Notes under the pieces: model-generated
Told to the model about the DNA's origin: nothing
What the model saw: only the letters and a program-made list of their open reading frames with translations
Databases searched by the model: none
Translations under genes and position numbers: made by a program
Shown here: positions 2,612-61,466 of the stretch, one piece after another
Layout of the letters: every line of letters starts with the position of its first letter
How positions within the stretch are numbered: position 1 is the first letter of the stretch
Origin: an uncultured Gammaproteobacteria bacterium
GTDB taxonomy: Bacteria > Patescibacteriota > Patescibacteriia > Magasanikbacterales > UBA922
Length of the DNA stretch: 64,000 nucleotides
NCBI GenBank assembly: GCA_965231005.1
Contig: OZ246405.1
Span: 1,095,829 to 1,159,828 of the forward strand
Direction of reading: 5' to 3'

Positions 2612-2618
2612 ATTGGAT

Positions 2619-3170
2619 TTATACTGTTAAAATTTCTTTTTCTTTTTCTTCTCCTATCTTTTTGACTTCTTCATTATAATCCTTGACCATTTTGTCAAGC
2701 GAATCTTGAGATTTATACTTTTGATCTTCAGAAATTTCTTTTTCTTTTTCTGCCTTATCAATTTGTGATCGCACATCTTCACGAATTTTTCTAATACTAA
2801 TTCGACATTCTTCTAATTTTTTGTGCAATACTTTTATCAACTCTTGGCGTCTATCTTGTGTAAGCTCTGGCAATGGTAGTCGAATAAGCTTTCCATCATT
2901 AACAGGATTAATTCCTAAATCAGAATGACGAAGTGCTGTTTCTACATCTTGAATAAGACTCTTATCCCAAGGATCTACATTTAGCGTTTTGGCATCTTCC
3001 ACTGATATTGATGCAACTGCCTTTAGTGGCTGTTTTGCACCATACGCCTCCACAATAATATCCTCGACCAATGCAGGAGTTGCTCTTCCTGTACGCAGGC
3101 TTGCTATTTCGCTTTTTAGATGTTGAATTGACTTACTAAAGTTTTGTTTACTGTCTTCTATAATTTGCAT
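2619..3170 (-). CDS. frr: ribosome recycling factor
   Basis: 183 aa with RRF-like sequence throughout (…LVEDIIVEAYGAKQPLKAVASISVEDAKTLNVDPWDKSLI…). Confidence 0.85.
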   Translation of the reverse strand: MQIIEDSKQNFSKSIQHLKSEIASLRTGRATPALVEDIIVEAYGAKQPLKAVASISVEDAKTLNVDPWDKSLIQDVETALRHSDLGINPVNDGKLIRLPLPELTQDRRQELIKVLHKKLEECRISIRKIREDVRSQIDKAEKEKEISEDQKYKSQDSLDKMVKDYNEEVKKIGEEKEKEILTV

Positions 3171-3193
3171 ATAGGTATCGATGCGCTTATATA

Positions 3194-26021: not shown

Positions 26022-26083
26022 TGGCGGACACGCGTCTAGTGGTCTGCGGATGACTTCCTTGCGAAACATCCTGGCGACAGTAC
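26022..26083 (+). pseudogene. degenerate partial copy of tRNA-Glu (D-arm and anticodon-arm segments only)
   Basis: Shares gtctagtggt (26034-26043) and catcctggcgacag (26067-26080) with the tRNA-Glu immediately downstream, in same order; no T-arm or acceptor. Confidence 0.35.
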
Positions 26084-26090
26084 AATTTAT

Positions 26091-26165
26091 GGCCCGTTCG
26101 TCTAGTGGTTAGGACACCAGGTTTTCATCCTGGCGACAGGGGTTCGATTCCCCTACGGGCTGCCA
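26091..26165 (+). tRNA. tRNA-Glu (anticodon TTC)
   Basis: 75 nt GGCCCGTTCGTCTAGTGGTTAGGACACCAGGTTTTCATCCTGGCGACAGGGGTTCGATTCCCCTACGGGCTGCCA; 7-bp acceptor stem (one G-U), anticodon stem CCAGG/CCTGG with loop TTTTCAT, T-loop TTCGATT, encoded CCA. Confidence 0.8.
26148..26163. repeat. attL-like 16-bp direct repeat (3' end of tRNA-Glu) ttcccctacgggctgc
   Basis: Exact 16-mer repeated at 32024-32039; 18-mer with 1 mismatch at 32107-32124. Confidence 0.6.
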
Positions 26166-26290: not shown

Positions 26291-26320
26291 TTGACAAGGT
26301 TGCACAAGGTTGGCTATACT
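26291..26320 (+). promoter_or_regulatory. sigma70-like promoter for island cargo operon
   Basis: TTGACA (26291-26296), 18-nt spacer, TATACT (26315-26320), about 8 nt before ATG at 26328. Confidence 0.5.
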
Positions 26321-26327
26321 TGCGGGC

Positions 26328-28382
26328 ATGAACAACTCTGACACAAATGATTTCATCATGATACAGGATGCGGCAGCATACCTGGACGTGAGCGCGAGCA
26401 CTCTGCGACGTTGGGAGGCAACGGGCAAGCTCGTGCCGGTTCGTCATCCACAGAATAGATACCGCTACTACAAGCGCTCTCAGCTGGAGCCGCTGCGCCT
26501 TGACTACACGCACGCGGAGCTCGAGGAGCCACATCGGCTCTTCTCGACGGCCATCGCGAAGATCGATGGCAACAAGAAGCTGCGTGATCCCCAGCAGGAG
26601 GCGCACAGCCACGTCCGCAAGCATTTCGCGACTTCGGATGCCCCCGCGATCCTGCAGATTCCGGTTGGCTGCGGGAAGACAGGGGTCATGGCCACACTCC
26701 CGTTTGGGGTTGCTAAGGGACGAGTGCTGGTTATCGTGCCAAACACCACGATTCGGGACGGAGTCGCCTCGGCGCTGAACAGTTCTAGTGCCAGGGCGTT
26801 TCTGAGGAAAGCGGAGGTCTTGTCCGACTTCTCGCACGGACCATTCCGGGCGATCCTGGATGGACCGAACGCGAACCTCTCCGACTGCGCAGACAGCCAT
26901 TTCGTCGTGGCGAACATTCAACAGCTGGCAAGTCGCGCTGACAGGTGGTTACCGCAGTTTCCGGACGACTTCTTCGACATGATCTTGGTGGACGAAGGTC
27001 ACCATAACGCCGCTCAGAGTTGGACGAGGGTGTTCGAGCGCTTTCCGAAGGCGAAAGTCGTCAGTCTGACGGCGACACCATTTCGCAGCGATGGGAAGCG
27101 ACTCCTCGGCGAGGTGATCTATCGCTACAGCTATACCCAGGCGATGCTGAAGGGCTACATCAAGCGCCTGCATGCCATCAACGCCTCGCCCCAGGAGATA
27201 TACTTTACCTACCGAGGTGATGAACGTCGCCACACTCTTGAGGAGGTGCTGGCGCTGAGAGAAGAGGCGTGGTTTCGCAGAGGCGTAGCCCTCGCGCCCG
27301 AGTGCAACAGACATATCGTCGATGCCAGCATTCATCGCTGCCTAAAGCTCAGGGAGAAGACCGGCCTCAAGCACCAGGTCATTGCGGCGGCTTGTTCGGT
27401 CGACCATGCACGGCAGGTGGAGGCACTCTACGAGCAGCGTAACTTCTCGACACGCTGCATCCACAGCAAGATGCCGGCGGAGGAGCAGGAGGCAGCGCTC
27501 CTGGCGCTTAGGAGCCGAAAGATCGACTGCATCGTGCAGGTGCAGATGTTGGGTGAAGGATTCGACCACCCCCCACTCTCCGTCGGCGCGATCTTTCGAC
27601 CCTATCGAAGCCTATCGCCGTTTATCCAATTCGTCGGTCGGATCATGAGGGTCGTGCACCAGGGGGACCCGGAGCATCCAGACAACAACGGCTACATCGT
27701 CTCGCATGTTGGACTAAACAACGATACCAACTGGGCCGACTTCCGCGAAATCGACCTCGACGACCAAGCTGAGATCCATCGCTGGCTCACGGAAAGTGAC
27801 ACAGAGTCGAGTGGCTCCGGAGAGGGCGGCCACGGGAGGAGGTTCGACGGTGGGATGGCGGTCGCAGACGAGGTAATCAGCCACTTCATCACACAGTCGT
27901 ATCTCGATCCGAACGACGACCGCGTCCTTGAGACGATTCTCAACCAGAAGATCCCTGGCACTCCATTCACGCTCAGCGCGCTCGTCTCGAAAGACGAGTT
28001 GAAGGCAAGAATGCTCGACGCCCAGAAGGAGCTGGAGCAAGCGCCGGTCCCCATCATTCCGCAACCACAGGACGTCCGCCGCACGACGAGACGCCGGGTC
28101 AATCAGCGATCGCGATCCGTCGCGAAACGGGTTCTTGATGACCTCCACCTCGGACTGCGCGGCCGTGAGGTCTCGAGAGCTGTGGCAGGTGCCGGGGGGA
28201 AGGCCAATCTCGACGCGCTGGTGGTTCTGATGAGCCGCGCAGTGAACGAGTACCTCGGAGTCGAGAAGGGTGGGCGAAGTGAAGTCCCAGGAGGCGCGCT
28301 TCAAGAAGTTTACGATCAGCTTGACGCACTGGGCGACCAAGTCAGGGACGAGGTCGCAGCTTCCATTTCAGAAAATAAGTAA
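26328..28382 (+). CDS. HTH (MerR/excisionase-like) domain fused to SF2 helicase (ResIII/DEAH-like ATPase)
   Basis: N-term IQDAAAYLDVSASTLRRWEATGKL HTH. Helicase motifs: I VGCGKTG, II ILVDEGHH, III SLTATP, V/VI QMLGEGFDHP ... FVGRIMR. ORF listed from 26310, but the -10 lies inside that start. About 230-aa C-terminal extension unassigned. Confidence 0.65.
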   Translation: MNNSDTNDFIMIQDAAAYLDVSASTLRRWEATGKLVPVRHPQNRYRYYKRSQLEPLRLDYTHAELEEPHRLFSTAIAKIDGNKKLRDPQQEAHSHVRKHFATSDAPAILQIPVGCGKTGVMATLPFGVAKGRVLVIVPNTTIRDGVASALNSSSARAFLRKAEVLSDFSHGPFRAILDGPNANLSDCADSHFVVANIQQLASRADRWLPQFPDDFFDMILVDEGHHNAAQSWTRVFERFPKAKVVSLTATPFRSDGKRLLGEVIYRYSYTQAMLKGYIKRLHAINASPQEIYFTYRGDERRHTLEEVLALREEAWFRRGVALAPECNRHIVDASIHRCLKLREKTGLKHQVIAAACSVDHARQVEALYEQRNFSTRCIHSKMPAEEQEAALLALRSRKIDCIVQVQMLGEGFDHPPLSVGAIFRPYRSLSPFIQFVGRIMRVVHQGDPEHPDNNGYIVSHVGLNNDTNWADFREIDLDDQAEIHRWLTESDTESSGSGEGGHGRRFDGGMAVADEVISHFITQSYLDPNDDRVLETILNQKIPGTPFTLSALVSKDELKARMLDAQKELEQAPVPIIPQPQDVRRTTRRRVNQRSRSVAKRVLDDLHLGLRGREVSRAVAGAGGKANLDALVVLMSRAVNEYLGVEKGGRSEVPGGALQEVYDQLDALGDQVRDEVAASISENK

Positions 28383-28388
28383 GAAACT

Positions 28389-28622
28389 ATGCCACAAATA
28401 AAGAATATTGCCCGTTCAGCGACGATTGACACAGCCAAGCGACAACGGTCGTGCAAGCGGTGTCGGGCAACGAAATCGATTGACGCGGGTTCGGACCACT
28501 TGGTGGTCCACGAAGCCCAGCGCGACTTCTACTACTGTCAGCGACACGCTATCGAGATCCTGGACACGGCAATCATTCATTGCCAGACCCTGAAGAAGCA
28601 GCTGGAGGCGGCTGCGATCTAG
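28389..28622 (+). CDS. small hypothetical protein with CxxC ... CxxH pattern (possible zinc ribbon)
   Basis: 77-aa ORF starting 7 nt after helicase stop; SCKRCRATKS ... YYCQRH; could be non-coding shadow in GC-rich DNA. Confidence 0.3.
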   Translation: MPQIKNIARSATIDTAKRQRSCKRCRATKSIDAGSDHLVVHEAQRDFYYCQRHAIEILDTAIIHCQTLKKQLEAAAI

Positions 28623-28663
28623 CTGGTCTTGCTGTGAATCGGCTCCAACGCGCGAAGAATCTT

Positions 28664-30109
28664 ATGACTACCGTCTCGGATTTCTACAACCTCAACCGCA
28701 GCCAGGGTGACCTGGATTTTGTGGACGTCGATATCTACGGCGATGTTCCTGTCTTTCTCGATCCTCGTGCCCTCCGACTACTCCCGACGCAGTGGGCCGA
28801 CCATTGTGTGAGCCTACTCCAGGACTTCTTCACCGTTGTACTGGGGCACATCCAAGCTGGGCGCGACCAGGCGGCTCGTTCATTGCTGGCAGCTCTGCGA
28901 GAGCCGAATGAGACTCATCTTGGGTTGTCCAAGGGCCGCTCTCAGGGCCGCGCGCTCGGCCGCACTTCCGCGTCACATGTGTGGGAGGCCCTGGCCAAGA
29001 GTTCCGCGGCTCGAAGTGGGCTTCTTGTGGACTTGGAGGACACCGTTCTGCTCGTCGAGGGCATTTCTTCGGACATCGTGTCTGACATGGCCACCAACAT
29101 AGTTCGAGGACCACTGATTGAGTACACCCAGGATGTGTGTCGTCAATTCGGAATCCCTCTGGTACCAGGAGTCGCATCGGGACCGTTGTGGAACCCGCAG
29201 ACTGGGCGCTGGGATCAAGCCTTGGTGGAACTACCCAAACCGCCAAGTGGAAGACTGCTGCTGATTCCGAAGGTCATCGTCAGGTACAAGCTCGACTACG
29301 ATGTTGGCGAATACTACCGACACTTCCTGCTCGAGCATCTCAAGATGGTCGAACTGCGGGCGAACTCCGAGCTCGTCGAACTACTCAGAGACGGCCGGCG
29401 CAGGGTCACCAAGAAGAAGCTGATCGAGAAGTACGGCAACTCCAAGGCCGCAGTCGTGCGGCTCACTCAGCGCTACCCACAGATTCTCGAGGACTACCGC
29501 CGTGCAAAGGACCGCGGTGTCTCTCCTCCACTAGAGCACGACACCATCGCCGATCTAACTCGGACACAGGAGCCGCAGTGGGACTCTCTGCTGAACGACG
29601 TTGTCACCAAGAATCCCGGCAGATCCGACGCATCAGCCTACCATGCTGCGGTTGAACGACTGTTGTCGGCATCCTTTTATCCAAACTGGACGAATCCAAG
29701 GAAGGAGGAGCCGCTTCACGACGGCAGGAAGCGGATAGATATTACATACACGAATATGGCCTCGTCGGGGTTCTTCTCTTGGCTGTCGAATCACCATCCT
29801 AGCGGCTCGATCATGGTTGAGTGCAAGAACTACTCGGGTGACCCGGCAAATCCCGAGCTTGATCAGCTGTCAGGACGCTTCTCCCCCAACAGGGGCAAGG
29901 TTGGCTTCCTGGTCTGTCGCTCTGTGCAGAACCGATCCCTATTCGAGCAGCGGTGCAAGGACACCGCCAGCGATGGTCGCGGGTTCATTCTCGTGCTCGA
30001 CGACGATGACCTGAGACTGATTGTCCAATCGAGGAAGGACGGAAATGCCAAGGTCGTTGACCAGATGCTTCACGAACGATTCGATCGGTTGGTTGGACTG
30101 GGGCGATGA
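28664..30109 (+). CDS. hypothetical protein with C-terminal PD-(D/E)xK-like nuclease motif
   Basis: ORF listed from 28580; MTTVSDFYNL start at 28664 avoids overlap. C-terminal RIDITYTN...(13 aa)...IMVECKNYS fits D...ExK restriction-endonuclease-fold signature, followed by Q..GRFS..GFLV. N-terminal about 330 aa unassigned. Confidence 0.45.
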   Translation: MTTVSDFYNLNRSQGDLDFVDVDIYGDVPVFLDPRALRLLPTQWADHCVSLLQDFFTVVLGHIQAGRDQAARSLLAALREPNETHLGLSKGRSQGRALGRTSASHVWEALAKSSAARSGLLVDLEDTVLLVEGISSDIVSDMATNIVRGPLIEYTQDVCRQFGIPLVPGVASGPLWNPQTGRWDQALVELPKPPSGRLLLIPKVIVRYKLDYDVGEYYRHFLLEHLKMVELRANSELVELLRDGRRRVTKKKLIEKYGNSKAAVVRLTQRYPQILEDYRRAKDRGVSPPLEHDTIADLTRTQEPQWDSLLNDVVTKNPGRSDASAYHAAVERLLSASFYPNWTNPRKEEPLHDGRKRIDITYTNMASSGFFSWLSNHHPSGSIMVECKNYSGDPANPELDQLSGRFSPNRGKVGFLVCRSVQNRSLFEQRCKDTASDGRGFILVLDDDDLRLIVQSRKDGNAKVVDQMLHERFDRLVGLGR

Positions 30110-30113: not shown

Positions 30114-31532
30114 CTACATCCACGTTGGCATGAGAGCAACTTCTAGTTCACCGCCGCTCCGTAGGCCAACGCTGCGAGCAACTGCGACGACTGCTTCCCG
30201 TCGCTTCGTTGCATCGTTGGCTCGCAGCATCTCGTCGATACCCTCAGCGAATTGCAGGAGCTGCGGTGTTTTCGGATCGTCGGCGTCGGGATCTCCACCA
30301 ACCGACTCCATCCACTCCACCATGCGTAGCGCTTCTCTGAGGCCCTGGTGCTCCATGCCGTAGAGCTCCTCGTCGACGTAGCCCTGCGCGTACTCGGTGG
30401 CGAGAGAGCGAAGTCGCTCTTGCAGCGTGCGTCGTTGTCGCCGGAGCTCGGCAACGCGCTCAGCCGATGACTTGTCGCGGTCCCGTTTCTGCTCACGCAA
30501 CTGCTTCTTCAGCTTCCGGATGACGGTCTCGGGGAGCTTCATCTCGAGCAGCTTGTCGACGACGGCTTGGTCAAGCTCGTCCGCCTTCCTCGCGAATCGA
30601 CAGAGCTTCGTGTGGCAGCGGTAGTAGCGGTACTTCTTGCCGCTCTTCTTGCGGTGCTCGGAGCCAACCAGGTTGCCGGCGCAACGCGGACACTTCACCA
30701 GGCCAGAGAGAAGGAACAGGTGTTTGCGCGGCTTGATACCGTGTCCACCACCTCGGACGGCGAAGACCTGCTGTGCGCGGGTGAACAGGTCCTTGGAGAC
30801 GAGAGCCGGGTATGACCCAGGAAAGACACCGACCTTGGTGACCATGAGCCCGTGGTAGAAGGGGTTCTGCAGGATCCTGCACCACTTGGTCGCGGCGATC
30901 TTGTTGCCGTACCTGCTGACCAGGCCCTTGCGGTACATGGCGTCAGCGAGTTCGGGGCTGGTGAGCTTCCCTTCGCTCCACAGCTCGAAGGCCTCGCGGA
31001 CCTTCATGGCCCGCGCCGGGTCGAAGACCAAGCGGCGGTTCTCCCAGAGGTAGCCAACTGGTGCTGGGCCGTTCCACAGGCCCTTCCTGAGCCGCTGCTC
31101 GAGGCTCTTGCGCACTTCGTGCGCCATGTTCGCGCTAGCGAACTCTGCGTTTGCAATCATAATATCTTCTGTAAATTGACCAGCGGGAGAGTCGTCGATG
31201 TGCTCAACAACGGAGTGGACCTTCGCACCGTGCTGTCGCAGCAGCGCGCGGTACACGTTGTACTGGTAGGTCCTGCGAGACAGGCGGTCGATCTTGTGCA
31301 CCAGGATGCCTGTGACGGCCGGGTCCTTCTTGACCCTCGCAATAGCGTCCAGCAAGCCTGGCCTCACGACGTTCTGCTTATAGGCGCTCTCGACGTCGGT
31401 GTAGTTCTCGACGATCTTGAGTCCGTGGTCATGCGCGTAACGCTTCATCGCGTGTAGTTGCGCTGGGATGGACAGCTCTCTGGCTGCCTGCGGGCCGGTA
31501 GAGACCCGCGCATAGGTTACGATATACATAGA
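30114..31532 (-). CDS. large serine recombinase (resolvase-domain integrase)
   Basis: N-term YARVSTGPQ...IPAQL catalytic-Ser resolvase domain (start MSMYIVTYARVST; ORF extends to 31562), recombinase domain, zinc ribbon CPRCAG...YYRCHTKLC, C-terminal coiled coil. Confidence 0.8.
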   Translation of the reverse strand, partial: SMYIVTYARVSTGPQAARELSIPAQLHAMKRYAHDHGLKIVENYTDVESAYKQNVVRPGLLDAIARVKKDPAVTGILVHKIDRLSRRTYQYNVYRALLRQHGAKVHSVVEHIDDSPAGQFTEDIMIANAEFASANMAHEVRKSLEQRLRKGLWNGPAPVGYLWENRRLVFDPARAMKVREAFELWSEGKLTSPELADAMYRKGLVSRYGNKIAATKWCRILQNPFYHGLMVTKVGVFPGSYPALVSKDLFTRAQQVFAVRGGGHGIKPRKHLFLLSGLVKCPRCAGNLVGSEHRKKSGKKYRYYRCHTKLCRFARKADELDQAVVDKLLEMKLPETVIRKLKKQLREQKRDRDKSSAERVAELRRQRRTLQERLRSLATEYAQGYVDEELYGMEHQGLREALRMVEWMESVGGDPDADDPKTPQLLQFAEGIDEMLRANDATKRREAVVAVARSVGLRSGGELEVALMPTWM

Positions 31533-31631
31533 CATTGTCTGGTTAGATGAGTAACCAGCCATCTTGCCAGAATCGCTGTTTTTGTGTAATATGTATCGTA
31601 TCTGAAAGCTGAGGCTCTGAGAGGTATCACA

Positions 31632-31900: not shown

Positions 31901-31914
31901 AAGGGGAATCGAAC
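31901..31914. repeat. inverted partial copy of tRNA-Glu T-loop/acceptor core (gttcgattcccctt on minus strand)
   Basis: Reverse complement of aaggggaatcgaac matches tRNA 26142-26154 (gttcgattcccct) 13/13; not a functional tRNA (no T-stem pairing). Confidence 0.3.
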
Positions 31915-32023
31915 TGGGGATGGTAAGGGGCAGCGCCCCTTACATTTCTGGGGGTGACCGAGCGCAAGCGAGGACAAGAGGGGCGGAAGCCCCTATTGGG
32001 AGCGAGAATACGCGACGTGAGAT

Positions 32024-32039
32024 TTCCCCTACGGGCTGC
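32024..32039. repeat. attR-like 16-bp direct repeat of tRNA-Glu 3' end
   Basis: ttcccctacgggctgc identical to 26148-26163. Confidence 0.6.
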
Positions 32040-32106
32040 AGAAAGTAAAAATCCCGAGCTTGCTCGAGGATTTTTATTTTTAAAGCACGGACGGGGAAGA
32101 CACAGT

Positions 32107-32124
32107 ATTCCCCTACGGCCTGCC
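32107..32124. repeat. second att-like copy (attcccctacggcctgcc, 1 mismatch to tRNA 3' end)
   Basis: Matches tRNA 26147-26164 with g->c change; 68 bp after first attR copy. Confidence 0.45.
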
Positions 32125-32175
32125 GGCAGGCAGGGCTGCAGAGATAAAAAAATCCAAATTTATTTGGTTTTTTTA

Positions 32176-32203
32176 TTGACTTTTTCTCAAAAAATAGCAT
32201 AAT
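32176..32203 (+). promoter_or_regulatory. sigma70-like promoter TTGACT-16-CATAAT
   Basis: ttgact (32176-32181), cataat (32198-32203); 10 nt upstream of small ORF 32214-32420. Confidence 0.35.
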
Positions 32204-32213
32204 AGAAGTACCA

Positions 32214-32420
32214 ATGCTCATCCTGGAGGACCTCATGACAAAGACCAAGAAAAAAAAGCCGCCCCCCGGCCAAACTTGGGACCCACACGCACTGTTGCGT
32301 GCACGCCCTCCAGTGGATCCGGAACGAGAGGCGCTAAACAAGCGTCTGCGTGAAGCGATCCCTCGTGGGGCTGCCCAACCCGGCGGCATCATCTGCGACG
32401 AGCGCCCTCCTCAGGAGTAG
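32214..32420 (+). CDS. small Pro/Arg-rich hypothetical ORF (doubtful)
   Basis: 68 aa, no recognisable features; possibly a transcribed non-coding leader. Confidence 0.2.
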   Translation: MLILEDLMTKTKKKKPPPGQTWDPHALLRARPPVDPEREALNKRLREAIPRGAAQPGGIICDERPPQE

Positions 32421-32604
32421 GCGCCCGTACCTGCAATACTTTTGCGACGTTGTTCCCGAGCACCGGGAGCACTCATCGCACTCGCGGTGTACGGGAACAA
32501 CAAAAGAACATCTTATCTAAAGATGTTTTTTTGATTTATAACATTGACAAACCAAACAAAACATGAGATAAATACCCTACTTTCTCTCATCAAGAAAGCC
32601 TGTG

Positions 32605-32761
32605 CTGGGATGGCATAGGAACGCTCTTTCCAAAGGTTGGAACTTCTACTGGGATGGTAGTCGAGAGCTGAAACATTTTTCCCCATGATGAGCATACACG
32701 GGATGTGGATGTGGGGACGGGTGGTGGTTCAATCGAATGGATCACAGTATCTCTGGGATGG
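32605..32761. repeat. three copies of CTGGGATGG (32605, 32649, 32753) plus gggatgtggatgtgggg; iteron-like cluster
   Basis: Exact 9-mer three times within 160 bp in an AT-rich stretch upstream of ORF 32795-33676. Confidence 0.3.
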
Positions 32762-32794
32762 AGATAAGCCTGTAGTTTCACCAAAGAGGATGAC

Positions 32795-33676
32795 ATGTCA
32801 ACCACAACATTGACTTTCAACGAGGCCTGGAGCTCTGGGCCGCAAGTGTGGCTCCTGGAAGAAGGGAATGTCGGTGTCGAGCTGATGTACCTGTGGGCCA
32901 TGGGCCAAGCAACGTCACTGCAAGATCTGGAAGACCGGCTGATTGCCCGCTTCCCGAAAACCTGTCTGCTGATGCGCGACAACCACAAGGCGCTGCTGAA
33001 ATTCTGGACCGAACGGTACAAGCTGACCGCTCCGAGAACGAAGCATCCGCCAGAGGTGATCGAGCGGACACTGGATCGGTTCAAAGAATTGGCACTCGCC
33101 GGAACAAATACAGGGCGTAGGTCTGGTCTTTCGAAGTACTACATGCAAATCCTCAGCAAGGATACATGGGAGGAAAAGCCCCTGAGCTCCATGCATCGGT
33201 CTTCAGGCAAAACCCAATGCCTGGTGCCAGATAGATGGACCAAACGCAAAGTGTTTCACCCTCACTTCACTGCCTCAATGGGCAAACTCGGTGAGGTCGA
33301 TGTGAGGATCGCTCGTATCAGCGGACGAAGGAATCGCAAATTCTGGATCGGATTCTGCTTTGCACAGCGTGATCTGACTGCGCAGAAATGTGCAGAACTC
33401 CAGAAGTTGCCATTCACCCACTGGAGCGAAGCGACCATCCCGAGAACGGTTCTCAAAGTCGATGCTGCATTCGAGCTGATCATGTTCATGCCAGAAACAG
33501 CAATCGAGGCACGTATTCGTCAAACAGTGCGTGCAGTCAACTCGGGCCCCCTTTCTGACAATGCACGCTCTATCAAGTCATCCAAACAAATCGAACTGCT
33601 GCGTCAGATGAGCGACTGGCTCGAGGCGAACGGGATTCCGTGTACGTACCTCGAAGAAAATCGCATTGGGCTGTAG
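32795..33676 (+). CDS. hypothetical protein (293 aa, GC-rich)
   Basis: Long ORF with GC-rich codon usage, RBS-like aagagga 8 nt upstream; no recognisable motif. Confidence 0.4.
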   Translation: MSTTTLTFNEAWSSGPQVWLLEEGNVGVELMYLWAMGQATSLQDLEDRLIARFPKTCLLMRDNHKALLKFWTERYKLTAPRTKHPPEVIERTLDRFKELALAGTNTGRRSGLSKYYMQILSKDTWEEKPLSSMHRSSGKTQCLVPDRWTKRKVFHPHFTASMGKLGEVDVRIARISGRRNRKFWIGFCFAQRDLTAQKCAELQKLPFTHWSEATIPRTVLKVDAAFELIMFMPETAIEARIRQTVRAVNSGPLSDNARSIKSSKQIELLRQMSDWLEANGIPCTYLEENRIGL

Positions 33677-33896
33677 CTCAAAAACTCATCCCCGATACGT
33701 CGGGGGGGCAGGATGAGCCAACAACAGAACTCAAAGGAGATGGACACGACCTGCCCGTGTCCTCCCATACTGTTTCTTTAATAGAGGAAATAGTTAGGAT
33801 AAAAAACTACCACAAGCTGGTGGTTTTTTATTATCAGCAGCTTGCAAAAAAACAGTTTCACCATTATTATAAATCTACCCACACTTAACCAAGGAG

Positions 33897-34574
33897 ATGA
33901 ACGTGAAACATTCAAACGTTCTTTTCATTGCGATGGCTACAGCGTCGGTCATCCTTTTCACATCTTGCACTGGCAAAAAGGAAGCCACCCGGAAAACGGC
34001 AATTGTTGTCGAAACCACCCCAAGACCAAGAAAGCCAAATCCACCTCAACCGCCACCTTCCACTCCAAAATCACCCCAACCTCCACCAATCGACCTCTCG
34101 CAGTACAGGTACATCAAGACCGCCTGCACCACCTGTGGTTGCCCAAGAAGATACCTTGCACGCCAAGGAGATTCAGTGGTGTTGGTGACAGCAGCTGAAC
34201 TCAACAAAAATGCTCTCTGGAAGATCCACACAGGTAGCTTGAGAAGCAGGTCTGGACAATCGATCGCAACAACAGTCTTTGAACACTTTCGAGGCGGCTG
34301 TCTGGATTGGGGCAATGGTGGAACCTTGATCATCAACAGAGGAGGCTGCTTCAGAGCTTCAGGCACTCATTGGTCCCGAAGGACAAGACTCCCCAACCGT
34401 GCTCGAATCGGAGTTCAGGGGGCTGTTGGCTATCGAAGCTTTGGCAGCGGAAGATACGACAAGCACTACCTGGACTTTCAAGGACGTGGAAACTGTCACC
34501 CTTCTTTAATTCACGAAGATCGAGTGAATCGGAATACAGTCGGAGTATTTTGGCTGGTCCGAAAAGAACCATAA
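33897..34574 (+). CDS. lipoprotein with Pro-rich linker (hypothetical)
   Basis: Signal peptide with lipobox-like ILFTSC, then TPRPRKPNPPQPPPSTPKSPQPPP linker; AAGGAG RBS. Confidence 0.45.
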   Translation: MNVKHSNVLFIAMATASVILFTSCTGKKEATRKTAIVVETTPRPRKPNPPQPPPSTPKSPQPPPIDLSQYRYIKTACTTCGCPRRYLARQGDSVVLVTAAELNKNALWKIHTGSLRSRSGQSIATTVFEHFRGGCLDWGNGGTLIINRGGCFRASGTHWSRRTRLPNRARIGVQGAVGYRSFGSGRYDKHYLDFQGRGNCHPSLIHEDRVNRNTVGVFWLVRKEP

Positions 34575-34705
34575 GTAATCACAACAAGAACAACAACCCA
34601 CAACAGCGGCACCCTCCTCGGAGGCTCTGCCGCTTTTCTAATTAAAAAAGCTCCAAACCTGTTCAGATCTAAAGCTTTTTCCCCTTTTTCGTTTTTGCTT
34701 GTGTC

Positions 34706-36958
34706 CTATTTTGCACTCAGGCGGACCCTGCACCTCATTGACCAGATTTCTGCTCCAAAGACACTTCTATCCCTTATCGAAGGTTTTTTTCTTGCACCTA
34801 CGATATGCAGATTCAAAATATTTCCTTGTAGTTTTACATGCCCTCTCGGCGAACGAACTATGCCGAGTCCTTCAATCCAATCAGCCTGTGGAAGTCGTAC
34901 ATGGTCAACAATGCGTATCTTCTTTCCTGGCCTGAAACGGTAAAAACGAAGACTGCCAGCAAGCAGTTCAACAATCAAACGACGGTCAGGAATATATGCA
35001 ATATCCACATTTGCAAGTTCTGCTATAGACCGTGCATCCTTGCTCAACATATATGGAAATCCTAACGACTTCCTCAATGGAACAAAGCGGCCATTTTGAT
35101 ATTCTTGTGCGCCTACTCTAAAACCCCAGTCTTTCGATCGGACAACGTAGTATCCTGATCCTGTACTCCGGCTTGACGCTGGGCCAGTTGTGTCAGTGAA
35201 GAACATGTAGTACCACCTACCAATGTGCACAAGCGATGGCTGGCCTGCGCCATATGGATGGACAAGTGTGTTTCCCTGTTGTCTTTTTTGCCATGCATGT
35301 TGCAATCCCCTTTTTGGTGTGTCGTCAACACTAAAGACTTCGAGAACATTGCTCTTGTTCTTTACGACACCAAAGCCATGAGGATGACGCCCTGCCAGTT
35401 CTTCCCACTTCCCTCCTCTCCAAAGATTCTGTTCTATTGCCTTTACAGCACAGTCAGACCAGTGTTTGTTGCATCCTCGTGGAAATTGATACGTGTTGAA
35501 CAAGTGAACGCCATAACCTTGGAATGTCGCACGTACAAATAATTCAATACGTCCTTCTCCGCCTTTTGCCAAAGCAAGTGGTGGATGGAAACTGCGCACA
35601 GAGCCAGGATGATTTGCCACAGATGTATCAACGATCTTTGACCAGTGTTTGTTTTCAAAACGTTGATTCTTGCTTTGTCTGACTGTCCAAATAGTCCCTG
35701 TTCTGGTCAGTGCGAAGAGATGGGCATATCCTTTCTTACCCTGGATAGCCTGCACGTCGGTAGGTTTGTTTGGTACTTTGATTCTCTGCCAAGGTCTACT
35801 CCACTGCCTAGCCCAGCGACTGCCCGCAGGCCGGTTTCGGACTTTGTAATAGATGTGCCCATTTGTTCCTGTAAGTCCAAACAGAACAATACTATTACTA
35901 TTTCCAGGAGCATCTGGAACAATGCCAGAACAAACACGTGGTGAATGAAAGAAAAGAGCTTTCTGCTTAGGAACTGGGAGCAATCCCTGCCGTAGCATAC
36001 TCTCTTCCCTACCAAAAATCTGACCTGACCAAGTGCCGAACACATACACCTTTCCGTGCGCGTCGCTGTGAGCAACAACATCATGAATCGGAGAACCAAC
36101 AACATTCCAAGCGTCCTTGAACTGAAGCTTCCTTGCATGTCCAGGACTGTATGGATTTTGCCAGTTTGTGTACAGCGTGTTTGTACCCTTCTTGACTGCA
36201 TAGGCTTGGATACGACCATGCGAATGCTGTTTGTCTTGCCATGTTGCGAGTGCAAAATCACTTGCAAAAAAATTCTTTCGGATGTCACCAACATAGTGTG
36301 GACGTCTCTCCCACTTGCCAGATTCATCTCGTTGAAAGTAATGCAAGCGACTGTCTGCACTCAAACTGAATACAGCAACATCTTGCCAGACACGATCGCG
36401 CTGCGGATTGTAATGCTTCATCAGAGTTGCGACAAGTGGTGCATGATGCGTACCACCCAATCCAGCATGCCATGATGTCCACCCACCGTGCCCTTCAATC
36501 GTAGGTTGGTGACCTCGATTGAGAACTCGCTTGAAATGAAGGCTATTCGTTCTTCTTGCAATCCCGATCTTTGTTCCAGGGCCAAAGTTGTATCCACCAT
36601 ATGCCATGATGTATCCGGTCTTGCTAGTCGCAATTACACTCGGGTCACATGTGTGCATCCCGTCAAAGTGGCTCTTACTCGTTCTTTTTGTTGATCCAAA
36701 AACACGAACAGGGTTTGTCCACTTTTGTCCAGCATTCTTCTTGCTAAAACAGATCGCATCACCACTGTTTTCGCAGCACCACCACATTTTCAAGACGTTT
36801 CCGTCCCTCATGATAGTTGGTGCATACTGATATGCGGAAAACGACTTGTGAACTAGGACTGGTTTGTCACAGCCGAGAAGCTGGAAAATAGTCTCAGATT
36901 CCTGTGTCCACCCAAGCTGAGTGCTAAAGAGTATGAACAAAAAAAGTACTCGGTTCAT
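34706..36958 (-). CDS. large secreted hypothetical protein (possible beta-propeller)
   Basis: 749-756 aa; signal peptide MNRVLFLFILFSTQLGW; Trp/Gly-rich repeats; start preceded by AAGGGGGA SD shared with other GC-rich genes. Confidence 0.4.
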   Translation of the reverse strand: MNRVLFLFILFSTQLGWTQESETIFQLLGCDKPVLVHKSFSAYQYAPTIMRDGNVLKMWWCCENSGDAICFSKKNAGQKWTNPVRVFGSTKRTSKSHFDGMHTCDPSVIATSKTGYIMAYGGYNFGPGTKIGIARRTNSLHFKRVLNRGHQPTIEGHGGWTSWHAGLGGTHHAPLVATLMKHYNPQRDRVWQDVAVFSLSADSRLHYFQRDESGKWERRPHYVGDIRKNFFASDFALATWQDKQHSHGRIQAYAVKKGTNTLYTNWQNPYSPGHARKLQFKDAWNVVGSPIHDVVAHSDAHGKVYVFGTWSGQIFGREESMLRQGLLPVPKQKALFFHSPRVCSGIVPDAPGNSNSIVLFGLTGTNGHIYYKVRNRPAGSRWARQWSRPWQRIKVPNKPTDVQAIQGKKGYAHLFALTRTGTIWTVRQSKNQRFENKHWSKIVDTSVANHPGSVRSFHPPLALAKGGEGRIELFVRATFQGYGVHLFNTYQFPRGCNKHWSDCAVKAIEQNLWRGGKWEELAGRHPHGFGVVKNKSNVLEVFSVDDTPKRGLQHAWQKRQQGNTLVHPYGAGQPSLVHIGRWYYMFFTDTTGPASSRSTGSGYYVVRSKDWGFRVGAQEYQNGRFVPLRKSLGFPYMLSKDARSIAELANVDIAYIPDRRLIVELLAGSLRFYRFRPGKKIRIVDHVRLPQADWIEGLGIVRSPRGHVKLQGNILNLHIVGARKKPSIRDRSVFGAEIWSMRCRVRLSAK

Positions 36959-37134
36959 CATGTCCCCCTTTTTCATGAATGACCTTTACACCTTAGCAGA
37001 ACAGAAAGAGAAAATCCAATCTGAAAACTTTATAAAAAATTCATACTTTATTTGTAACAATTTCAATAGATATTCTTCCTTTTTAAAAGAATATCACCCA
37101 ACCAACCGCTCATTCACAATACAAGGGGGAAACC

Positions 37135-40100
37135 ATGAAAACCAGACTGTTCATTGCAGCATGTATTGCGCTGCATATCTGGGGCTGTTCAAACGGCGAA
37201 CACGAAAACGAAGCAGATGCAAAGGCTGACTTTGTCATTGGCGAAACAGCAAAAGGTGCCTGTGACGACAAAGAGCTGCCGAACAATACCAGAACCATCT
37301 TGAGCAAGTACTGCGCGGACTGTCATGGTCCGAACAGCGGGAAGCTCGGTGGATTTGGTACAGTGCTCGATGCAAAGGCAATGACGATTGGCGACAACGC
37401 GCTGGTAAAAGCTGGCAAGGTTGCTGAATCACGTCTGTTTACGAAGCTGAAAGCTGCTGGCGGGAACATGCCACTAAGTGCAGATGATCTGAGCAAGGAC
37501 GAAGTCGACACGCTGCGCGACTGGATTAACTGCGGCGCAGAGAGCTGGGACGAAGAATGCACAAGGAAATTTATTTCCAATGAAGAAATGCACAAGATAA
37601 TGGCAGATGACCTTAGCAGCCTTGCTGCTGAAGAACGGAAGAACATCCGCTATATCACACTCACGCACCTGTACAACGCATGTGTCAACCGAGACCAGCT
37701 GGATATCTATCGAACTGGCATTAGCAAACTCGTAAACAGCCTGAGCTGGACAAAGGGCATTTTCAAACCAGTTCCAGTAGGTAAATTCGGAACGATCTAC
37801 CGAATCAACCTGAGTCTGTATGGTTGGCTTCCAGGACAAACAAGCGAAAAAGGCATGTGGGAGCTCATTGAAAAGGCATATCCATACGGCTTTAAGGTTG
37901 AAAAAGGCATTGACAACGATTTTTCAGAGGTTGTAAGTCAGACCAAAACGAATACACCATACGTGCACGCTGATTGGTTTGCAAACCGTGCTGGAAAACC
38001 TCCACTCTATCACGCCCTGCTGAATCTTCCATTGACTGACACTGAGCTTGAAAAGGACTTCTTGAGTGTCGATGTTTTGTCGAATATCAAAAAGACAGAG
38101 CAAGGCAACAAAAACGCTTCTACGCGAGTAATCCGTGCTGCTGTACAAGATTCTGGTGTTTCAAACCACAACCGCATGATCGAACGTCATAAGTCAAAAT
38201 ATGGCTGGTACTGGAAAAGTTATGACTTTGCTGGCAGTGTTGGCAAGCAAGACCTTGAGCAAAATCCGCTCGGTCCAAACGAGACACCAGTAACTTTCGA
38301 ACATGATGGCGGTGAGATGATTTTCACGCTCCCAAATGGCCTTGATGGCTACTTGGTGACGAATGCTGCAAGTTGCAGGATCGACGTGGCACCAACTGCC
38401 ATTGTTTCTGATCCAAAAAGCCAGGACAAGGCTGTGCGTCCAGGAAGTTCTTGCATGGGCTGCCACTACAAGGGCAAAATTCCAGCTGCGGACTTTGTGC
38501 GTGATTCAATTACGAGCAAGAAGCAACAGTTTATCACCGAACATGGCCAGAAAGCATTTCAGGCGGTTTTGAACCTCTATCCGCCGAAAAAGGAGTTTTC
38601 TGCAGCGATCAATCAAGAGCAACAGGATTTCCTGAAACAGTTGGCGCTTGCTGGCGTTGATCCATCAAAGGATGAACCAGTCTCTGCACTGGCAAATTCG
38701 TTTGAAGATCAACTCGACAAGGTAAAGATCGCAGCAACGCTTGGAATTGATCCCAAGGAAATTGAAAACTTCCTCAAGTTCGACGCTGTAGCAAGTAGCC
38801 TGATCGGCTCAGTGCGTAAAGATGGTGAGACCATCCCACGAGACAAGTTCTGCACATACTTCTCTGCGATTCTGAACCAGAAGAATGGCACGTTCGCTGG
38901 CTACACACCACTGGCAGATGTAAAAGTTTGCCAGCCACCAAAAGACGTTGCTGGCTGTCTCCAAAACGAGTGCCTGAAAGATGCTGACTGCAATAGCAAA
39001 GACGAATGCACTGTTGGGAGCTGCAACATACAAAAAGGATGCGTGTTTACGCCTATTGCGAAGATATGCGATGATGGAAATCAGTGCACCACAGACAAAT
39101 GCATAACTGGAACTCCAAAAAAATGCACACATACACCTACTCCGAATGCAAGCTGCAATGCAGACAACAACGTTTGCACCAAGTTTGACTCGTGTTCGGA
39201 CAGCGGAGTTTGCAAAGCAGGAGAGCAAAAAGTCTGCCCAAAGCCAGTGAATCCATGTGAAAAACAAAAATGCGATTCGAAAATCGGCTGTGCAGTTGAC
39301 ATCTTGCCAAATGGGACAAGCTGCCCAGGTGGTCTTTGCCACTCTGGAAAGTGCGTACTAGCTGCAAAGCAAATAAGTGCAGGAGACCTTTTCACATGTG
39401 CAGTAACACTGAACGACACTGTTGTCTGCTGGGGTCTAAACAAATTTGGTCAGCTGGGAAATGGTTCAAAAGTGCTAAACACCTCAGTACCTGTTCATGT
39501 GAAGGGACTCACCAACGTAGAAAGCGTATCTGCTGGTGTATCACATGCTTGTGCTATTAAAAAGGACAAGACCCTGTGGTGCTGGGGTTTTAACAACTAT
39601 GGTCAACTCTCAGTGGGAAGCAACAAGGGCAGTCCAATACCAGTGAATATTCCATCTATGAAGGTAAATCAAGTTGGGATTGGAAATTCTCATACCTGCG
39701 CGCTAAACACCACCGGCTCTGTATACTGCTGGGGTGACAATTCCTACGGACAACTTGGCACAGATACGAAGGTGCTCAAAAACTCCCATAAGCCTGTCCT
39801 TGCGAGCAGTGGAATCGAACAAATAGCACTTGGTCCTCAACATTCTTGTGCCATTCAGTCTAGTAATGGCGTCTCCTGCTGGGGACGTAATCAATACGGA
39901 CAACTCGGCAATGGAAGTAAGGATGATACTCACATCACCTACAAGTGGAAAAATCTCGCTCTTCCTACATTTATTGATGCTGGATACCTAAATACCTGCG
40001 CAATAAAAAGTAATTCGTCGCTTTACTGTTGGGGAAGCAACATCCATGGAAAACTTGGTGTAGGGAGTACCAAGGCTGGCGAGGTGCTTACTCACGTCCT

Positions 40101-40428
40101 TGCAACCGCAGTTCCTACTGATGTGACAGACGTAAGTATTGGCCGACATCATGTGTGCGTGAAGACCAAAAAGAACAAATTCCATTGCTGGGGAAGCAAC
40201 AAAGATGGACAAGTAGGTTTCAATCCTCAATTCATTCACAAAAAGGAATTCCTCTTCCCACTGGCCATGGGATCTGGTAAACAGATATCGACTCGAAATT
40301 CACATACGTGTGCAATCATGGATGATAAGACGGTAAAGTGCTGGGGATTCAACTCTCTTGGACAAATAGGACACGGGAAAACAGGGGGAAGTGTTATAGG
40401 GCCGGTCCACGTATTGCCTCCGAAGTGA
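37135..40428 (+). CDS. giant lipoprotein: N-terminal CxxCH motif region, Myxococcus-type cysteine-rich repeats, seven C-terminal RCC1 repeats
   Basis: Lipobox IWGCS; YCADCHGP (heme-binding-like CxxCH); CxDGNxCTxDKC-type repeats (CDDGNQCTTDKC etc.); RCC1 blades (…CWGxNxxGQLGxG… seven times). Confidence 0.6.
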   Translation: MKTRLFIAACIALHIWGCSNGEHENEADAKADFVIGETAKGACDDKELPNNTRTILSKYCADCHGPNSGKLGGFGTVLDAKAMTIGDNALVKAGKVAESRLFTKLKAAGGNMPLSADDLSKDEVDTLRDWINCGAESWDEECTRKFISNEEMHKIMADDLSSLAAEERKNIRYITLTHLYNACVNRDQLDIYRTGISKLVNSLSWTKGIFKPVPVGKFGTIYRINLSLYGWLPGQTSEKGMWELIEKAYPYGFKVEKGIDNDFSEVVSQTKTNTPYVHADWFANRAGKPPLYHALLNLPLTDTELEKDFLSVDVLSNIKKTEQGNKNASTRVIRAAVQDSGVSNHNRMIERHKSKYGWYWKSYDFAGSVGKQDLEQNPLGPNETPVTFEHDGGEMIFTLPNGLDGYLVTNAASCRIDVAPTAIVSDPKSQDKAVRPGSSCMGCHYKGKIPAADFVRDSITSKKQQFITEHGQKAFQAVLNLYPPKKEFSAAINQEQQDFLKQLALAGVDPSKDEPVSALANSFEDQLDKVKIAATLGIDPKEIENFLKFDAVASSLIGSVRKDGETIPRDKFCTYFSAILNQKNGTFAGYTPLADVKVCQPPKDVAGCLQNECLKDADCNSKDECTVGSCNIQKGCVFTPIAKICDDGNQCTTDKCITGTPKKCTHTPTPNASCNADNNVCTKFDSCSDSGVCKAGEQKVCPKPVNPCEKQKCDSKIGCAVDILPNGTSCPGGLCHSGKCVLAAKQISAGDLFTCAVTLNDTVVCWGLNKFGQLGNGSKVLNTSVPVHVKGLTNVESVSAGVSHACAIKKDKTLWCWGFNNYGQLSVGSNKGSPIPVNIPSMKVNQVGIGNSHTCALNTTGSVYCWGDNSYGQLGTDTKVLKNSHKPVLASSGIEQIALGPQHSCAIQSSNGVSCWGRNQYGQLGNGSKDDTHITYKWKNLALPTFIDAGYLNTCAIKSNSSLYCWGSNIHGKLGVGSTKAGEVLTHVLATAVPTDVTDVSIGRHHVCVKTKKNKFHCWGSNKDGQVGFNPQFIHKKEFLFPLAMGSGKQISTRNSHTCAIMDDKTVKCWGFNSLGQIGHGKTGGSVIGPVHVLPPK

Positions 40429-40612
40429 AGATCAAGTAGCACACCACGCTCACGCGTTGTGCGCTCAACCAAACGAACGTGGACGACTGTTGCTTTTCGA
40501 AGCGACGGTCGTCCACTTTTTAATTTGATAAAAACTTTATATTCCATAATTGACAAAAATGGAAAAAAGCACTTATAGTTAAACTACAGAACTCAAACCA
40601 AGGGGGAAACCA

Positions 40613-42223
40613 ATGAAGAACGCTGTTCTTTTTACAATCTGCTGCCTACTTTTGACGCTCGGACCGAGCTGCAGCTCAAATAATCCAGTTTGCGACTTGG
40701 GTGATGTTGAGTGCAGAAGCGGTGGAAGGATGTTTTTTTGTAGAGTCTCGACAACTTCCAATGGAAACTTTTGGAAGTTTTCCCACACCTGTTCATCCAA
40801 GAAGTGCAAAAGTGCAACAACGTGCGCACCGAAGTCAACCAAAAAAGACGCAGGATCAACCCAAAAGCAGGACGGAAAAAGCACTGCAAAATACTGCGGT
40901 GACAGCATCTGTGAAACAAACGAAAGCTGCGAAACTTGCCCAAAGGACTGTGGAAAGTGTAAACCAAAATGCGGCGACGGAACATGCAACGGTCAAACAG
41001 AAAATTGCGCTGTCTGCCCACAAGACTGCAAGTGCAAGTCAGGAACCAAATGCAACAAAGCAAAAGGCATTCAAGCCTGCGTCTACGATCCAAAGTGCGG
41101 CAATGGGAAATGCGACGGTCAAACAGAAAACTGTTTCAACTGTTCCAAGGACTGCAAGTGTTCTAGTGGACAAATCTGCAGTCCGAAAAAACAAAGCTGC
41201 GTCAAACCATATTGTGGAGATGGTCTTTGCCGATCTTCTGATGGTGAACGGTGCTACAACTGCGAAGTAGATTGCAAATGCAGCTCGAGCTTGGTCTGCA
41301 GTAAGTCAAAGGGTGGATGCTGCAAACAAAAGACCTGTTCAAGCTATCCCAAAGGAATATGTGGAATCCAGTCAGATGGCTGTGACAGTACCATTTCCTG
41401 TGGATGCCCAAAGAACTATGTCTGTGGTCATAACAAGTGCAAGCTAAACTGTTCAGCACTCTGCAAAAACAAATGCGGTAAGCTGAGCAATGGCTGTAAC
41501 TGCGGCTCTTGTGGATACAACTCACTTTGCATCGGGAATGTTTGTAAATCATGCAAACCACTGTGCACTGGAAAATGCGGGAACTTTCTCGGCTGCAATT
41601 GTAGTATCTACAAAAAGTGTTCAAAGTGGTACCTCTGTGTACAAAACCAGTGCGTCAACTGCCAAGAGCTTTGCCTATTCAAAAACAAGTGGTGTGGTAA
41701 CTTCAGTGCTTGCGGCACCAACAAAAACTGCGTAAACAGCAAGTGCTCAAGTGGATACGTCTGCAAGTCAAACAAATGCACCAAAAAACCACCAGAGTGT
41801 TCGGGCGGTGCAGGCTGTGCCCCAGAAAAACTCTGCTGTGGCGGCAAGTGTAAACTTGCAAAGTTGCAGGACGACTACGGAAAGAACTGGATGTCCGCAA
41901 AGAGTGCATACTACAAGCAGACCATTTCAGGACAACTTTACCCATCCTCTGATGTTGACCTTTTTCAGGTAAAAGCGACTCTCTCTGCAAATGGAAAGAG
42001 CGTAATTCCAATTAAGTTAAAGTTCAACGGACCAGGACTGAACTGCACATTGAAGCGCAAGAAATATGGACCGAATAGTCCAGTAACGTACGCATCGTGC
42101 AACTACGCAAAGGCCTTTACTCCTCAGTGGGGATCAGGAAATGGCTACTACTACTATGTGGAGATTAGGAGCCAAAGCTCTTCTAAAAAAGGCTGCTGGA
42201 CACTGCAGGTCGTGAAAGGATAG
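40613..42223 (+). CDS. secreted cysteine-rich repeat protein with PPC-like C-terminal domain
   Basis: Signal peptide; three tandem about 42-aa repeats CGDGTCNGQTENCAVCPQDCKC / CGNGKCDGQTENCFNCSKDCKC / CGDGLCRSSDGERCYNCEVDCKC; many further CxxC units; C-term …SSDVDLFQVKA… beta-sandwich-like. Confidence 0.55.
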   Translation: MKNAVLFTICCLLLTLGPSCSSNNPVCDLGDVECRSGGRMFFCRVSTTSNGNFWKFSHTCSSKKCKSATTCAPKSTKKDAGSTQKQDGKSTAKYCGDSICETNESCETCPKDCGKCKPKCGDGTCNGQTENCAVCPQDCKCKSGTKCNKAKGIQACVYDPKCGNGKCDGQTENCFNCSKDCKCSSGQICSPKKQSCVKPYCGDGLCRSSDGERCYNCEVDCKCSSSLVCSKSKGGCCKQKTCSSYPKGICGIQSDGCDSTISCGCPKNYVCGHNKCKLNCSALCKNKCGKLSNGCNCGSCGYNSLCIGNVCKSCKPLCTGKCGNFLGCNCSIYKKCSKWYLCVQNQCVNCQELCLFKNKWCGNFSACGTNKNCVNSKCSSGYVCKSNKCTKKPPECSGGAGCAPEKLCCGGKCKLAKLQDDYGKNWMSAKSAYYKQTISGQLYPSSDVDLFQVKATLSANGKSVIPIKLKFNGPGLNCTLKRKKYGPNSPVTYASCNYAKAFTPQWGSGNGYYYYVEIRSQSSSKKGCWTLQVVKG

Positions 42224-42354
42224 ATCGCCCAAAAAATCAAACAAGGAGAAGAAAACACCAACGGTTCTGTCTTGGCAGAGCCAATGGTGTTTTTTCTTGT
42301 CAAAATATAAAAATCAAGGCATACTTGAGTAAGTTATTTTAGTAATTCCAACAT

Positions 42355-61344: not shown

Positions 61345-61466
61345 ATTACTAGACAAAAAGGTATGTGAGCGAACGAGACGATGATTGTGTTTTTCTCCTT
61401 CTTTGCTCCAGTGACCTTGTGACTTGTGGCGTCAGTGGGCCGTTGTTGTGGAGACGATGGTGGGTG

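Follow-up and report, generated by a model that had tools for sequence, protein, structure and literature searches.

A helicase pair and a DUF8370 nuclease on a small tRNA-Glu element: probably two independent modules rather than one defence system

Introduction

Within a 64,000-nucleotide stretch of contig OZ246405.1 from an uncultured bacterium (assembly GCA_965231005.1, positions 1,095,829 to 1,159,828; hereafter the window), positions 26328–30109 hold a superfamily 2 (SF2) helicase gene, a short open reading frame (ORF) and a nuclease gene, one directly after the other on a mobile island. This locus raises the question of whether helicase and nuclease are parts of one dedicated machinery, as the initial annotation of the locus had proposed, or whether they are unrelated units that share an island. 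If the former were true, the locus would represent a new helicase–nuclease defence system; its failure spares effort on a false lead. Our analysis leads us to the latter answer, which we hold with good confidence: The region most likely comprises two independent, widespread and experimentally uncharacterised modules that are chance neighbours and do not constitute a single system. Module A consists of the helicase and the small ORF, module B of the nuclease:

26328..28382, + strand: helicase, 684 aa, ATG start; module A, gene 1
28389..28622, + strand: small protein, 77 aa, Cys/His-rich (C22, C25, C53 and several His); module A, gene 2
28664..30109, + strand: nuclease, 481 aa, ATG start; module B; DUF8370 / PDC-M36A / phrog_27295

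The ORFs and motifs of the initial annotation were all found where it had placed them (ORF listing, motif positions). Our argument builds on gene content, folds, motif conservation, island borders and co-occurrence, all of which were observed directly.

Results and Discussion

Helicase and nuclease are not paired in other loci

A system whose helicase and nuclease depend on each other is expected to keep both genes together, and the initial annotation had itself named a lack of conserved co-occurrence, beforehand, among the findings that would refute its one-system proposal. We therefore surveyed the surroundings of both genes. On the nuclease side (80 loci from 80 species, flanks up to 7 kb), 78 loci lack any helicase match and the remaining two contain a distant SF2 core of 22–25% identity more than 4.5 kb away; neither the helix-turn-helix (HTH) domain nor the tail nor the small ORF of the helicase occurs in any of the 80, and no family of flanking ORFs, as defined by ORF clustering, is common to more than six of them. 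The small-protein family was likewise absent from 100 nuclease loci. On the helicase side, the nuclease was found in none of 80 metagenome loci of the closest relatives, and on IMG/VR viral contigs (15 nuclease and 20 helicase loci) the two were never paired. The nearest relatives of each gene tell the same story: The closest homologue of the helicase (66% identity) lies between a type III restriction–modification (R-M) system and AbiGi with no nuclease gene, and the closest homologue of the nuclease (61% identity) lies directly before DndB with no helicase gene, the 85-aa ORF upstream of it not being the small partner of the helicase. Among the loci surveyed, both genes occur together on the source contig only. 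Because the two genes are never paired outside this island in the surveyed loci, co-occurrence is missing from both sides and we do not regard them as one helicase–nuclease system.

Several observations nevertheless weigh against this reading. The three genes lie on the same strand, are separated by gaps of only 7 and 41 bp and are preceded by a single strong predicted promoter, and no terminator was predicted between them; the genes are therefore probably co-transcribed here. The survey was confined to the 80 loci of highest similarity in each collection and to ORFs of 50–60 aa or more. Moreover, at one further locus (L167, 10001–16310; L168, 5575–11884) the HTH-helicase and its small ORF are followed 5 bp later by a gene for a different protein of about 485 aa (DUF2779). 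Two short ORFs come next and then a large serine recombinase in convergent orientation; beyond it lie another serine recombinase and a type I R-M system. This hints that the helicase pair sometimes works with whatever sits downstream, and it is the only such hint that we encountered. Finally, no experiment or publication was found that ties either family to defence, and the "PDC" entries of PADLOC, to one of which the nuclease belongs, are to our knowledge untested candidates.

The compact arrangement, together with an island that lacks a methyltransferase and a small element that has these genes as its only cargo, is what would be expected if helicase, small protein and nuclease formed one dedicated three-gene defence system in which the helicase senses foreign DNA or moves along it and then passes it to the nuclease in a Hachiman-like manner. 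However, the separate occurrence of both genes in metagenomes, genomes and viral contigs, the nearest homologue of each without the other and the lack of a conserved neighbour of the nuclease have already largely refuted such a unit, which we consider very improbable. The comparison with the two systems it most resembles points in the same direction. In Hachiman, HamA (a DUF1837 nuclease) and HamB (an SF2 helicase) are conserved neighbours, and Gabija is composed of GajA (an ATPase–TOPRIM/OLD nuclease) and GajB (a UvrD-like SF1 helicase). No HamA, HamB, GajA or GajB model of PADLOC matched any of the five island proteins at E ≤ 0.01. In contrast to Gabija, the island helicase is an SF2 protein of the ResIII/Helicase_C type and not UvrD-like, and the island nuclease is a PD-(D/E)xK and not a TOPRIM enzyme; and whereas both known systems are conserved pairs, the island helicase and nuclease are not. 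Membership in either system, from which the initial annotation had already set the locus apart, is thus rejected for lack of model matches and of conserved pairing.

A small Cys/His-rich protein is the real partner of the helicase

If the nuclease does not accompany the helicase, does any other gene do so? The 77-aa protein, whose gene starts 7 bp past the helicase stop and which carries a CKRC motif at residues 22–25, has no match in Pfam, PADLOC, PHROG or NCBIfam, and a sequence search with it as query found the query alone, owing to a word-index limit. However, the helicase loci from metagenomes contain an ORF of about 78 aa directly 3′ of the helicase on the same strand (median gap 17 bp). 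BLAST clustering grouped these neighbours as homologues in 48 loci, and a hidden Markov model (HMM) built from the 48 clustered sequences detected the family in 72 of the 75 helicase loci with room for it. The small ORF also accompanies the helicase in plasmid and genome examples. Helicase and small ORF hence form a conserved two-gene operon, in which the small ORF is the real partner of the helicase and is probably translationally coupled to it. The pattern shared by most of the small proteins, R-x-C…H…Y-C-x-x-C followed by a C-terminal helix, makes zinc binding likely, though not in every member, because some of them lack the cysteines.

What follows the pair is variable. Of 60 loci, 29 have a same-strand gene that begins no more than 400 bp after the small ORF, and in 30 the next gene is on the opposite strand; this gene is not usually a nuclease: The domains encountered in these diverse genes comprise TIR/TPR, TIR_2, N6_Mtase, HipA_C, Pkinase, Phosphoesterase, DUF2779, SduA_C and a transposase HTH. 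One might read the pair as a generic motor or sensor cassette with swappable downstream effectors, which would be DUF8370 here and DUF2779, SduA_C, TIR or HipA elsewhere; the frequency of close same-strand genes, the effector-type domains among them (TIR_2, SduA_C, DUF2779, HipA_C, Phosphoesterase) and the layout of L167/L168, which parallels that of the window, are consistent with this view. However, a next gene on the opposite strand in half of the loci means that the pair commonly stands alone, most downstream genes are complete, self-sufficient systems or unrelated (N6_Mtase, kinase, transposase HTH), and none of the 80 genomes surveyed gives DUF8370 a conserved companion, so that we judge such a cassette to be rather improbable. 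We rate just as low the related proposal that the pair is an undescribed, widespread defence or conflict system that co-opts its downstream effector and uses DUF8370 as its executioner at this locus, an association that would be functionally real and yet not evolutionarily fixed.

With respect to novelty, the two modules differ. The helicase pair matches no named PADLOC 2.0 model and is the most novel element of the region; no literature on the HTH-helicase/small-protein family was found, including searches for HTH_17, ResIII and defence and broader ones for MerR, helicase and anti-phage. For the nuclease, the claim of the initial annotation that the system is undescribed fails, as set out below.

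The helicase combines an HTH domain, an SF2 core and a conserved tail

The helicase gene can be read from ATG 26328 or, as an alternative, from TTG 26310, which adds 6 residues and yields a 690-aa form; the corresponding NCBI product P0121 (674 aa) begins 10 codons downstream of the ATG, at MIQDAA. Both RecA-like domains and motifs I, II, III, V and VI of SF2 helicases are present (VGCGKTG at position 113, DEGHH at 222, LTATP at 247, QMLGEGFDHP at 406 and FVGRIMR at 435). On the 690-aa form, Pfam assigns MerR/HTH_17 to residues 18–60 (E-value 3.6e-9), ResIII to 89–259 (8e-26) and Helicase_C to 350–448 (4e-12). The HTH domain resembles excisionase, MerR and IS607-type HTH models. The conserved C-terminal tail of about 215 aa has no match in Pfam, and the protein carries no nuclease domain. 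The initial description, in which a MerR/excisionase-like HTH is joined to an SF2 core with all its parts and an unassigned tail follows, is thereby borne out. Full-length homologues with 57–66% identity are spread over many phyla; a protein search returned 3,950 matches at E ≤ 0.001, among which only the listed full-length ones are sure members of the family. In cultured-phage records only distant helicase cores of at most 27% identity were found.

Some annotations name such proteins after the housekeeping DNA-repair helicase RadD. RadD is indeed the best match in the profile search of the PDB (4e-21), followed by 7clg ("Putative helicase", 953 aa; 3e-16), which we take to be the type IV enzyme SauUSI, by a type I R subunit and by XPB; RadD is also the best NCBIfam match, and the JGI annotation reads "DNA repair protein RadD". 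The similarity is, however, limited to the helicase core, the score against the NCBIfam equivalog NF053632 is 83.4 bits with a cut-off of 720, the gene sits in a 58% GC island of a 35% GC genome, and the family occurs on plasmids and prophage-like contigs. Both the failed equivalog cut-off and the mobile context lead us to reject the housekeeping reading, the probability of which we regard as negligible. The best PADLOC matches of the core are mREase_IV, PbeA and REase_I. The protein thus has its SF2 core of the ResIII/Helicase_C type in common with RadD, with XPB and with the motors of restriction enzymes of type I and type IV (SauUSI-like); unlike those proteins, it has an HTH domain at its N-terminus, a unique conserved tail and a small Cys/His-rich partner, and no nuclease domain.

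The nuclease couples a FokI-like domain to an N-domain with no solved structural relative

The nuclease gene starts at ATG 28664 or, alternatively, at TTG 28580, which gives a 509-aa form. AlphaFold2 modeling from a 22-sequence alignment yielded a mean predicted local distance difference test score (pLDDT) of 83.8 and a predicted template modeling score (pTM) of 0.83. In this model the C-terminal domain shows the restriction-endonuclease-like α/β core of the PD-(D/E)xK superfamily, and the conserved D…(D/E)-x-K signature is contributed by the motifs RIDITYTN (position 357) and IMVECKNYS (383): In an alignment of 199 homologues, D359 is retained in 197, E386 in 199 and K388 in 197. Modeled fold and residue conservation together identify the C-terminus as a FokI/Mrr-like PD-(D/E)xK domain with D359, E386 and K388 as its predicted catalytic residues, in line with the assignment first made from the motif. 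The cleavage domains of FokI, MspJI and AspBHI share only 6–14% sequence identity with module B, and a sequence-profile search of the PDB with the nuclease family gave nothing significant.

The N-terminal domain (residues 1–333; window 28664–29662), which the initial annotation had singled out as large and novel, has no similar fold among solved structures and is unlike the recognition domains of FokI-type type IIS enzymes or of MspJI and AspBHI. It contains a series of near-invariant residues (D21, D27, E83, H85, E125, D126, D137, D141, N145 and R148, each in at least 192 of 199 homologues) as well as an invariant loop, EPNETHLG…G…G (EPNETHLGLS..G…G), which the model leaves unplaced at low confidence. 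The conservation of these charged residues and of the loop suggests a second catalytic site or a ligand-binding site.

The family to which the nuclease belongs already bears several names, as judged by profile matches. PADLOC PDC-M36A (PDLC04597) aligns with residues 31–486 of the 509-aa form over profile positions 7–434 of 457 (E 5.8e-39), PDLC04598 is a second PADLOC match (E 2.1e-13), phrog_27295 matches at E 4e-141, and the precomputed Pfam label PF28123 (DUF8370) is attached to an identical database protein and to all 120 listed homologues. The nuclease is therefore not undescribed, although no papers on PDC-M36, PF28123 or DUF8370 were found. PDC-M36 models other than A are matched neither by the helicase, the small ORF, the recombinase of the island nor the ORF at 32795–33676, and no PDC-M36 partner model is among the 25 families listed for 150 neighbours of nuclease homologues. 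Because no other PDC-M36 model flanks it and no partner is conserved in 80 genomes, the nuclease appears to behave as a single-gene unit.

The family is widespread. A protein database search with the nuclease returned 3,585 matches at E ≤ 0.001, and the N-domain alone 1,297 cluster representatives at 50% identity, of which many consist of the N-domain only (about 280–350 aa) and some few far exceed this length; the DUF8370 N-domain thus occurs alone or joined to other C-termini. Cultured-phage records contain no homologue of the nuclease. An N-domain-only protein of 318 aa (30% identity) is encoded by coding sequence 2500–3456 of the Bacillus cereus plasmid pMRY14-0100_7 (L164; 4,560 bp), where it is one of two annotated genes, and similar proteins are found on small plasmids of Bacillus, Rhodococcus and Prescottella. 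The DUF8370 N-domain may have a plasmid-related DNA function. Homologues with 49–54% identity also occur in metagenome-assembled genomes of the candidate phyla radiation (Parcubacteria, Paceibacterota and Saccharibacteria; L021, L022, L038). Two of these loci, L021 and L022, also have large serine recombinases nearby, with 24–27% identity to that of the window, an arrangement that echoes its element.

Both modules are cargo of a small integrative element

How did the two modules come to lie next to each other? The features that delimit the region are:

26091..26165, + strand: tRNA-Glu (anticodon TTC), integration site, identified with ARAGORN
26147–26164, + strand: left direct-repeat copy, the 3′ end of tRNA-Glu (repeat family D1)
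26291..26320, + strand: predicted sigma-70-like promoter TTGACA-18-TATACT (consensus scan, 11/12 matches)
30114..31562, − strand: large serine recombinase, 482 aa (Pfam Resolvase, Recombinase, Zn_ribbon_recom), convergent with the nuclease gene
32023–32040, + strand: right partial repeat of the tRNA-Glu 3′ end, 16/18 matches (repeat family D1)
32107–32124, + strand: second right partial repeat of the tRNA-Glu 3′ end, 17/18 matches (repeat family D1)

Along the window, the GC content rises from about 0.36 to 0.58–0.61 across 26–32 kb and falls after 32 kb, so that an island of 58% GC stands out from a host of 35% GC; the step at 26 kb begins immediately 3′ of tRNA-Glu. The repeats at 32023..32124 are candidate right-hand attachment-site scars and would mark the right border. 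The recombinase comprises the Resolvase catalytic domain (PF00239, 6e-27), the Recombinase domain (PF07508, 1.5e-9) and the zinc ribbon (PF13408, 5.7e-10) that define large serine recombinases, matches the integrase family phrog_95 (6e-76) and is presumed to be the integrase of the element. Because foreign GC content, tRNA-Glu repeats and serine recombinase delimit the region, we conclude that it is an integrative element of about 5.9 kb at the 3′ end of tRNA-Glu and that the three genes are its sole cargo. On both the mobile island and its lack of a methyltransferase, our data agree with the initial annotation.

The −10 hexamer of the predicted promoter ends 7 nt upstream of ATG 26328; the helicase mRNA may therefore be leaderless or nearly leaderless. 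Upstream of tRNA-Glu (26030–26090) lies a degenerate partial tRNA copy, in which 14 nt at 26067–26080 exactly repeat 26126–26139, and at 31902–31914 the T-arm recurs as a 13-nt copy in inverted orientation; both may have been left behind when elements integrated or excised in the past.

Both families behave as mobile cassettes and often reside in defence-rich regions

In other genomes, DUF8370 nucleases neighbour MADS components, AriA, RmrA, Cas1 and a type I methyltransferase (MTase). On the Bacillus mycoides plasmid p419, a homologue is flanked on one side by adjacent genes for a TOPRIM-domain protein and a UvrD helicase, Gabija-like by annotation, and on the other side by an integrase, an AAA ATPase and a McrC-family gene. 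Neighbours of the helicase pair include CBASS cyclases, TIR-pAgo, a type I MTase and Vsr; the family occurs on plasmids, on prophage-like contigs and in variable contexts, and in Hoeflea the pair lies beside housekeeping genes. A large serine recombinase is situated divergently upstream of the helicase in 7 of 80 loci, and on plasmids the pair is found beside a small serine recombinase or is directly preceded by two tyrosine recombinases and a transposase. The latter arrangement is seen on plasmid pSMC-4_1 of Mycobacterium sp. SMC-4 (L162, 3085–12196), where two tyrosine recombinases and a "transposase", in a layout like that of a recombinase-in-trio, precede the pair on the same strand, the pair itself being convergent with the gene of a 945-aa DNA methyltransferase.

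The recurrent company of recombinases raises the question of whether the HTH-helicase/small pair serves the element itself, in the control of excision, in replication or in transfer after excision, with its HTH domain binding element DNA. The similarity of this domain to excisionase, MerR and IS607-type models, the recombinases mentioned above and the shared 5.9 kb element of the window argue for such a role. However, most loci have no adjacent recombinase, the pair also lies among housekeeping genes in Hoeflea, and the differing types of recombinase (large serine, small serine, tyrosine) fit cargo better than an accessory factor; moreover, we know of no SF2 ResIII-type helicase that acts as initiator or directionality factor for elements of this kind. 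We consider a role in the service of the element unlikely, if somewhat less so than a shared machinery of helicase and nuclease.

As far as gene neighbourhoods can tell, both families behave as mobile cassettes of patchy distribution, with frequent insertions where defence genes abound. Because of this distribution, a role in defence or in conflict between elements has circumstantial support, which does not amount to proof.

Proposed roles of the two modules

The biochemical activities and the defence role that we infer for two independent modules would be as follows. In module A, the helicase would be a DNA translocase that is driven by ATP and guided to DNA by its HTH domain, and the small protein would be its obligate cofactor or regulator; the pair would take part in the conflict between host and mobile elements, be it in defence or in a similar function. 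Module B would be a single-chain restriction-like endonuclease, in which the N-domain recognises the target, be it DNA or a signal, and the FokI-like domain cuts DNA. FokI cleaves as a dimer, and by analogy module B would probably do so as well. Because a partner methyltransferase is missing, discrimination of self and non-self would be type-IV-like or Shedu-like and would not proceed via host methylation. The architecture of module B, a specificity domain plus a cleavage domain and no methyltransferase, is compatible with type IV restriction enzymes, although its N-domain matches no known reader domain. Shedu (SduA) offers a plausible functional analogy, as it is likewise a solitary PD-(D/E)xK nuclease that has no methyltransferase and bears a domain for regulation or sensing at its N-terminus; its profile (DUF4263), however, is unmatched by module B.

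Other foreign-looking genes in the window

Directly after the island, at 32125–42225, lies a second block of intermediate GC (46–54%) that encodes large proteins with no assigned function, one of which (1097 aa) combines RCC1/WD40-like repeats with a cytochrome-c-like domain; this tRNA may thus have received another insertion. Further downstream, the ribose-phosphate pyrophosphokinase gene (Prs, 47030–48019; Pfam Pribosyltran_N, 4.5e-36) has 57% GC in a genome of about 35% GC and appears to be a housekeeping gene acquired horizontally. Two isolated ORFs in low-GC surroundings also have 57% GC: One at 43138–44463 encodes a secreted-looking protein with Dicty_CTDC repeats, and one at 61365–61871 (168 aa), with no match in Pfam, may be spurious.

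Conclusion

The two probable modules of this locus matter in different ways. DUF8370/PDC-M36A is now described in structural terms: a solitary nuclease in which a cleavage domain modeled as FokI-like is joined to an N-domain that has no solved structural relative and carries an invariant charged site of its own. The helicase pair is a concrete candidate for further work, since it is well defined, very widespread and often found in defence-rich or mobile contexts. The island as a whole illustrates how small serine-recombinase elements can bring several stacked pieces of defence-type cargo into genomes quite unlike those they came from.

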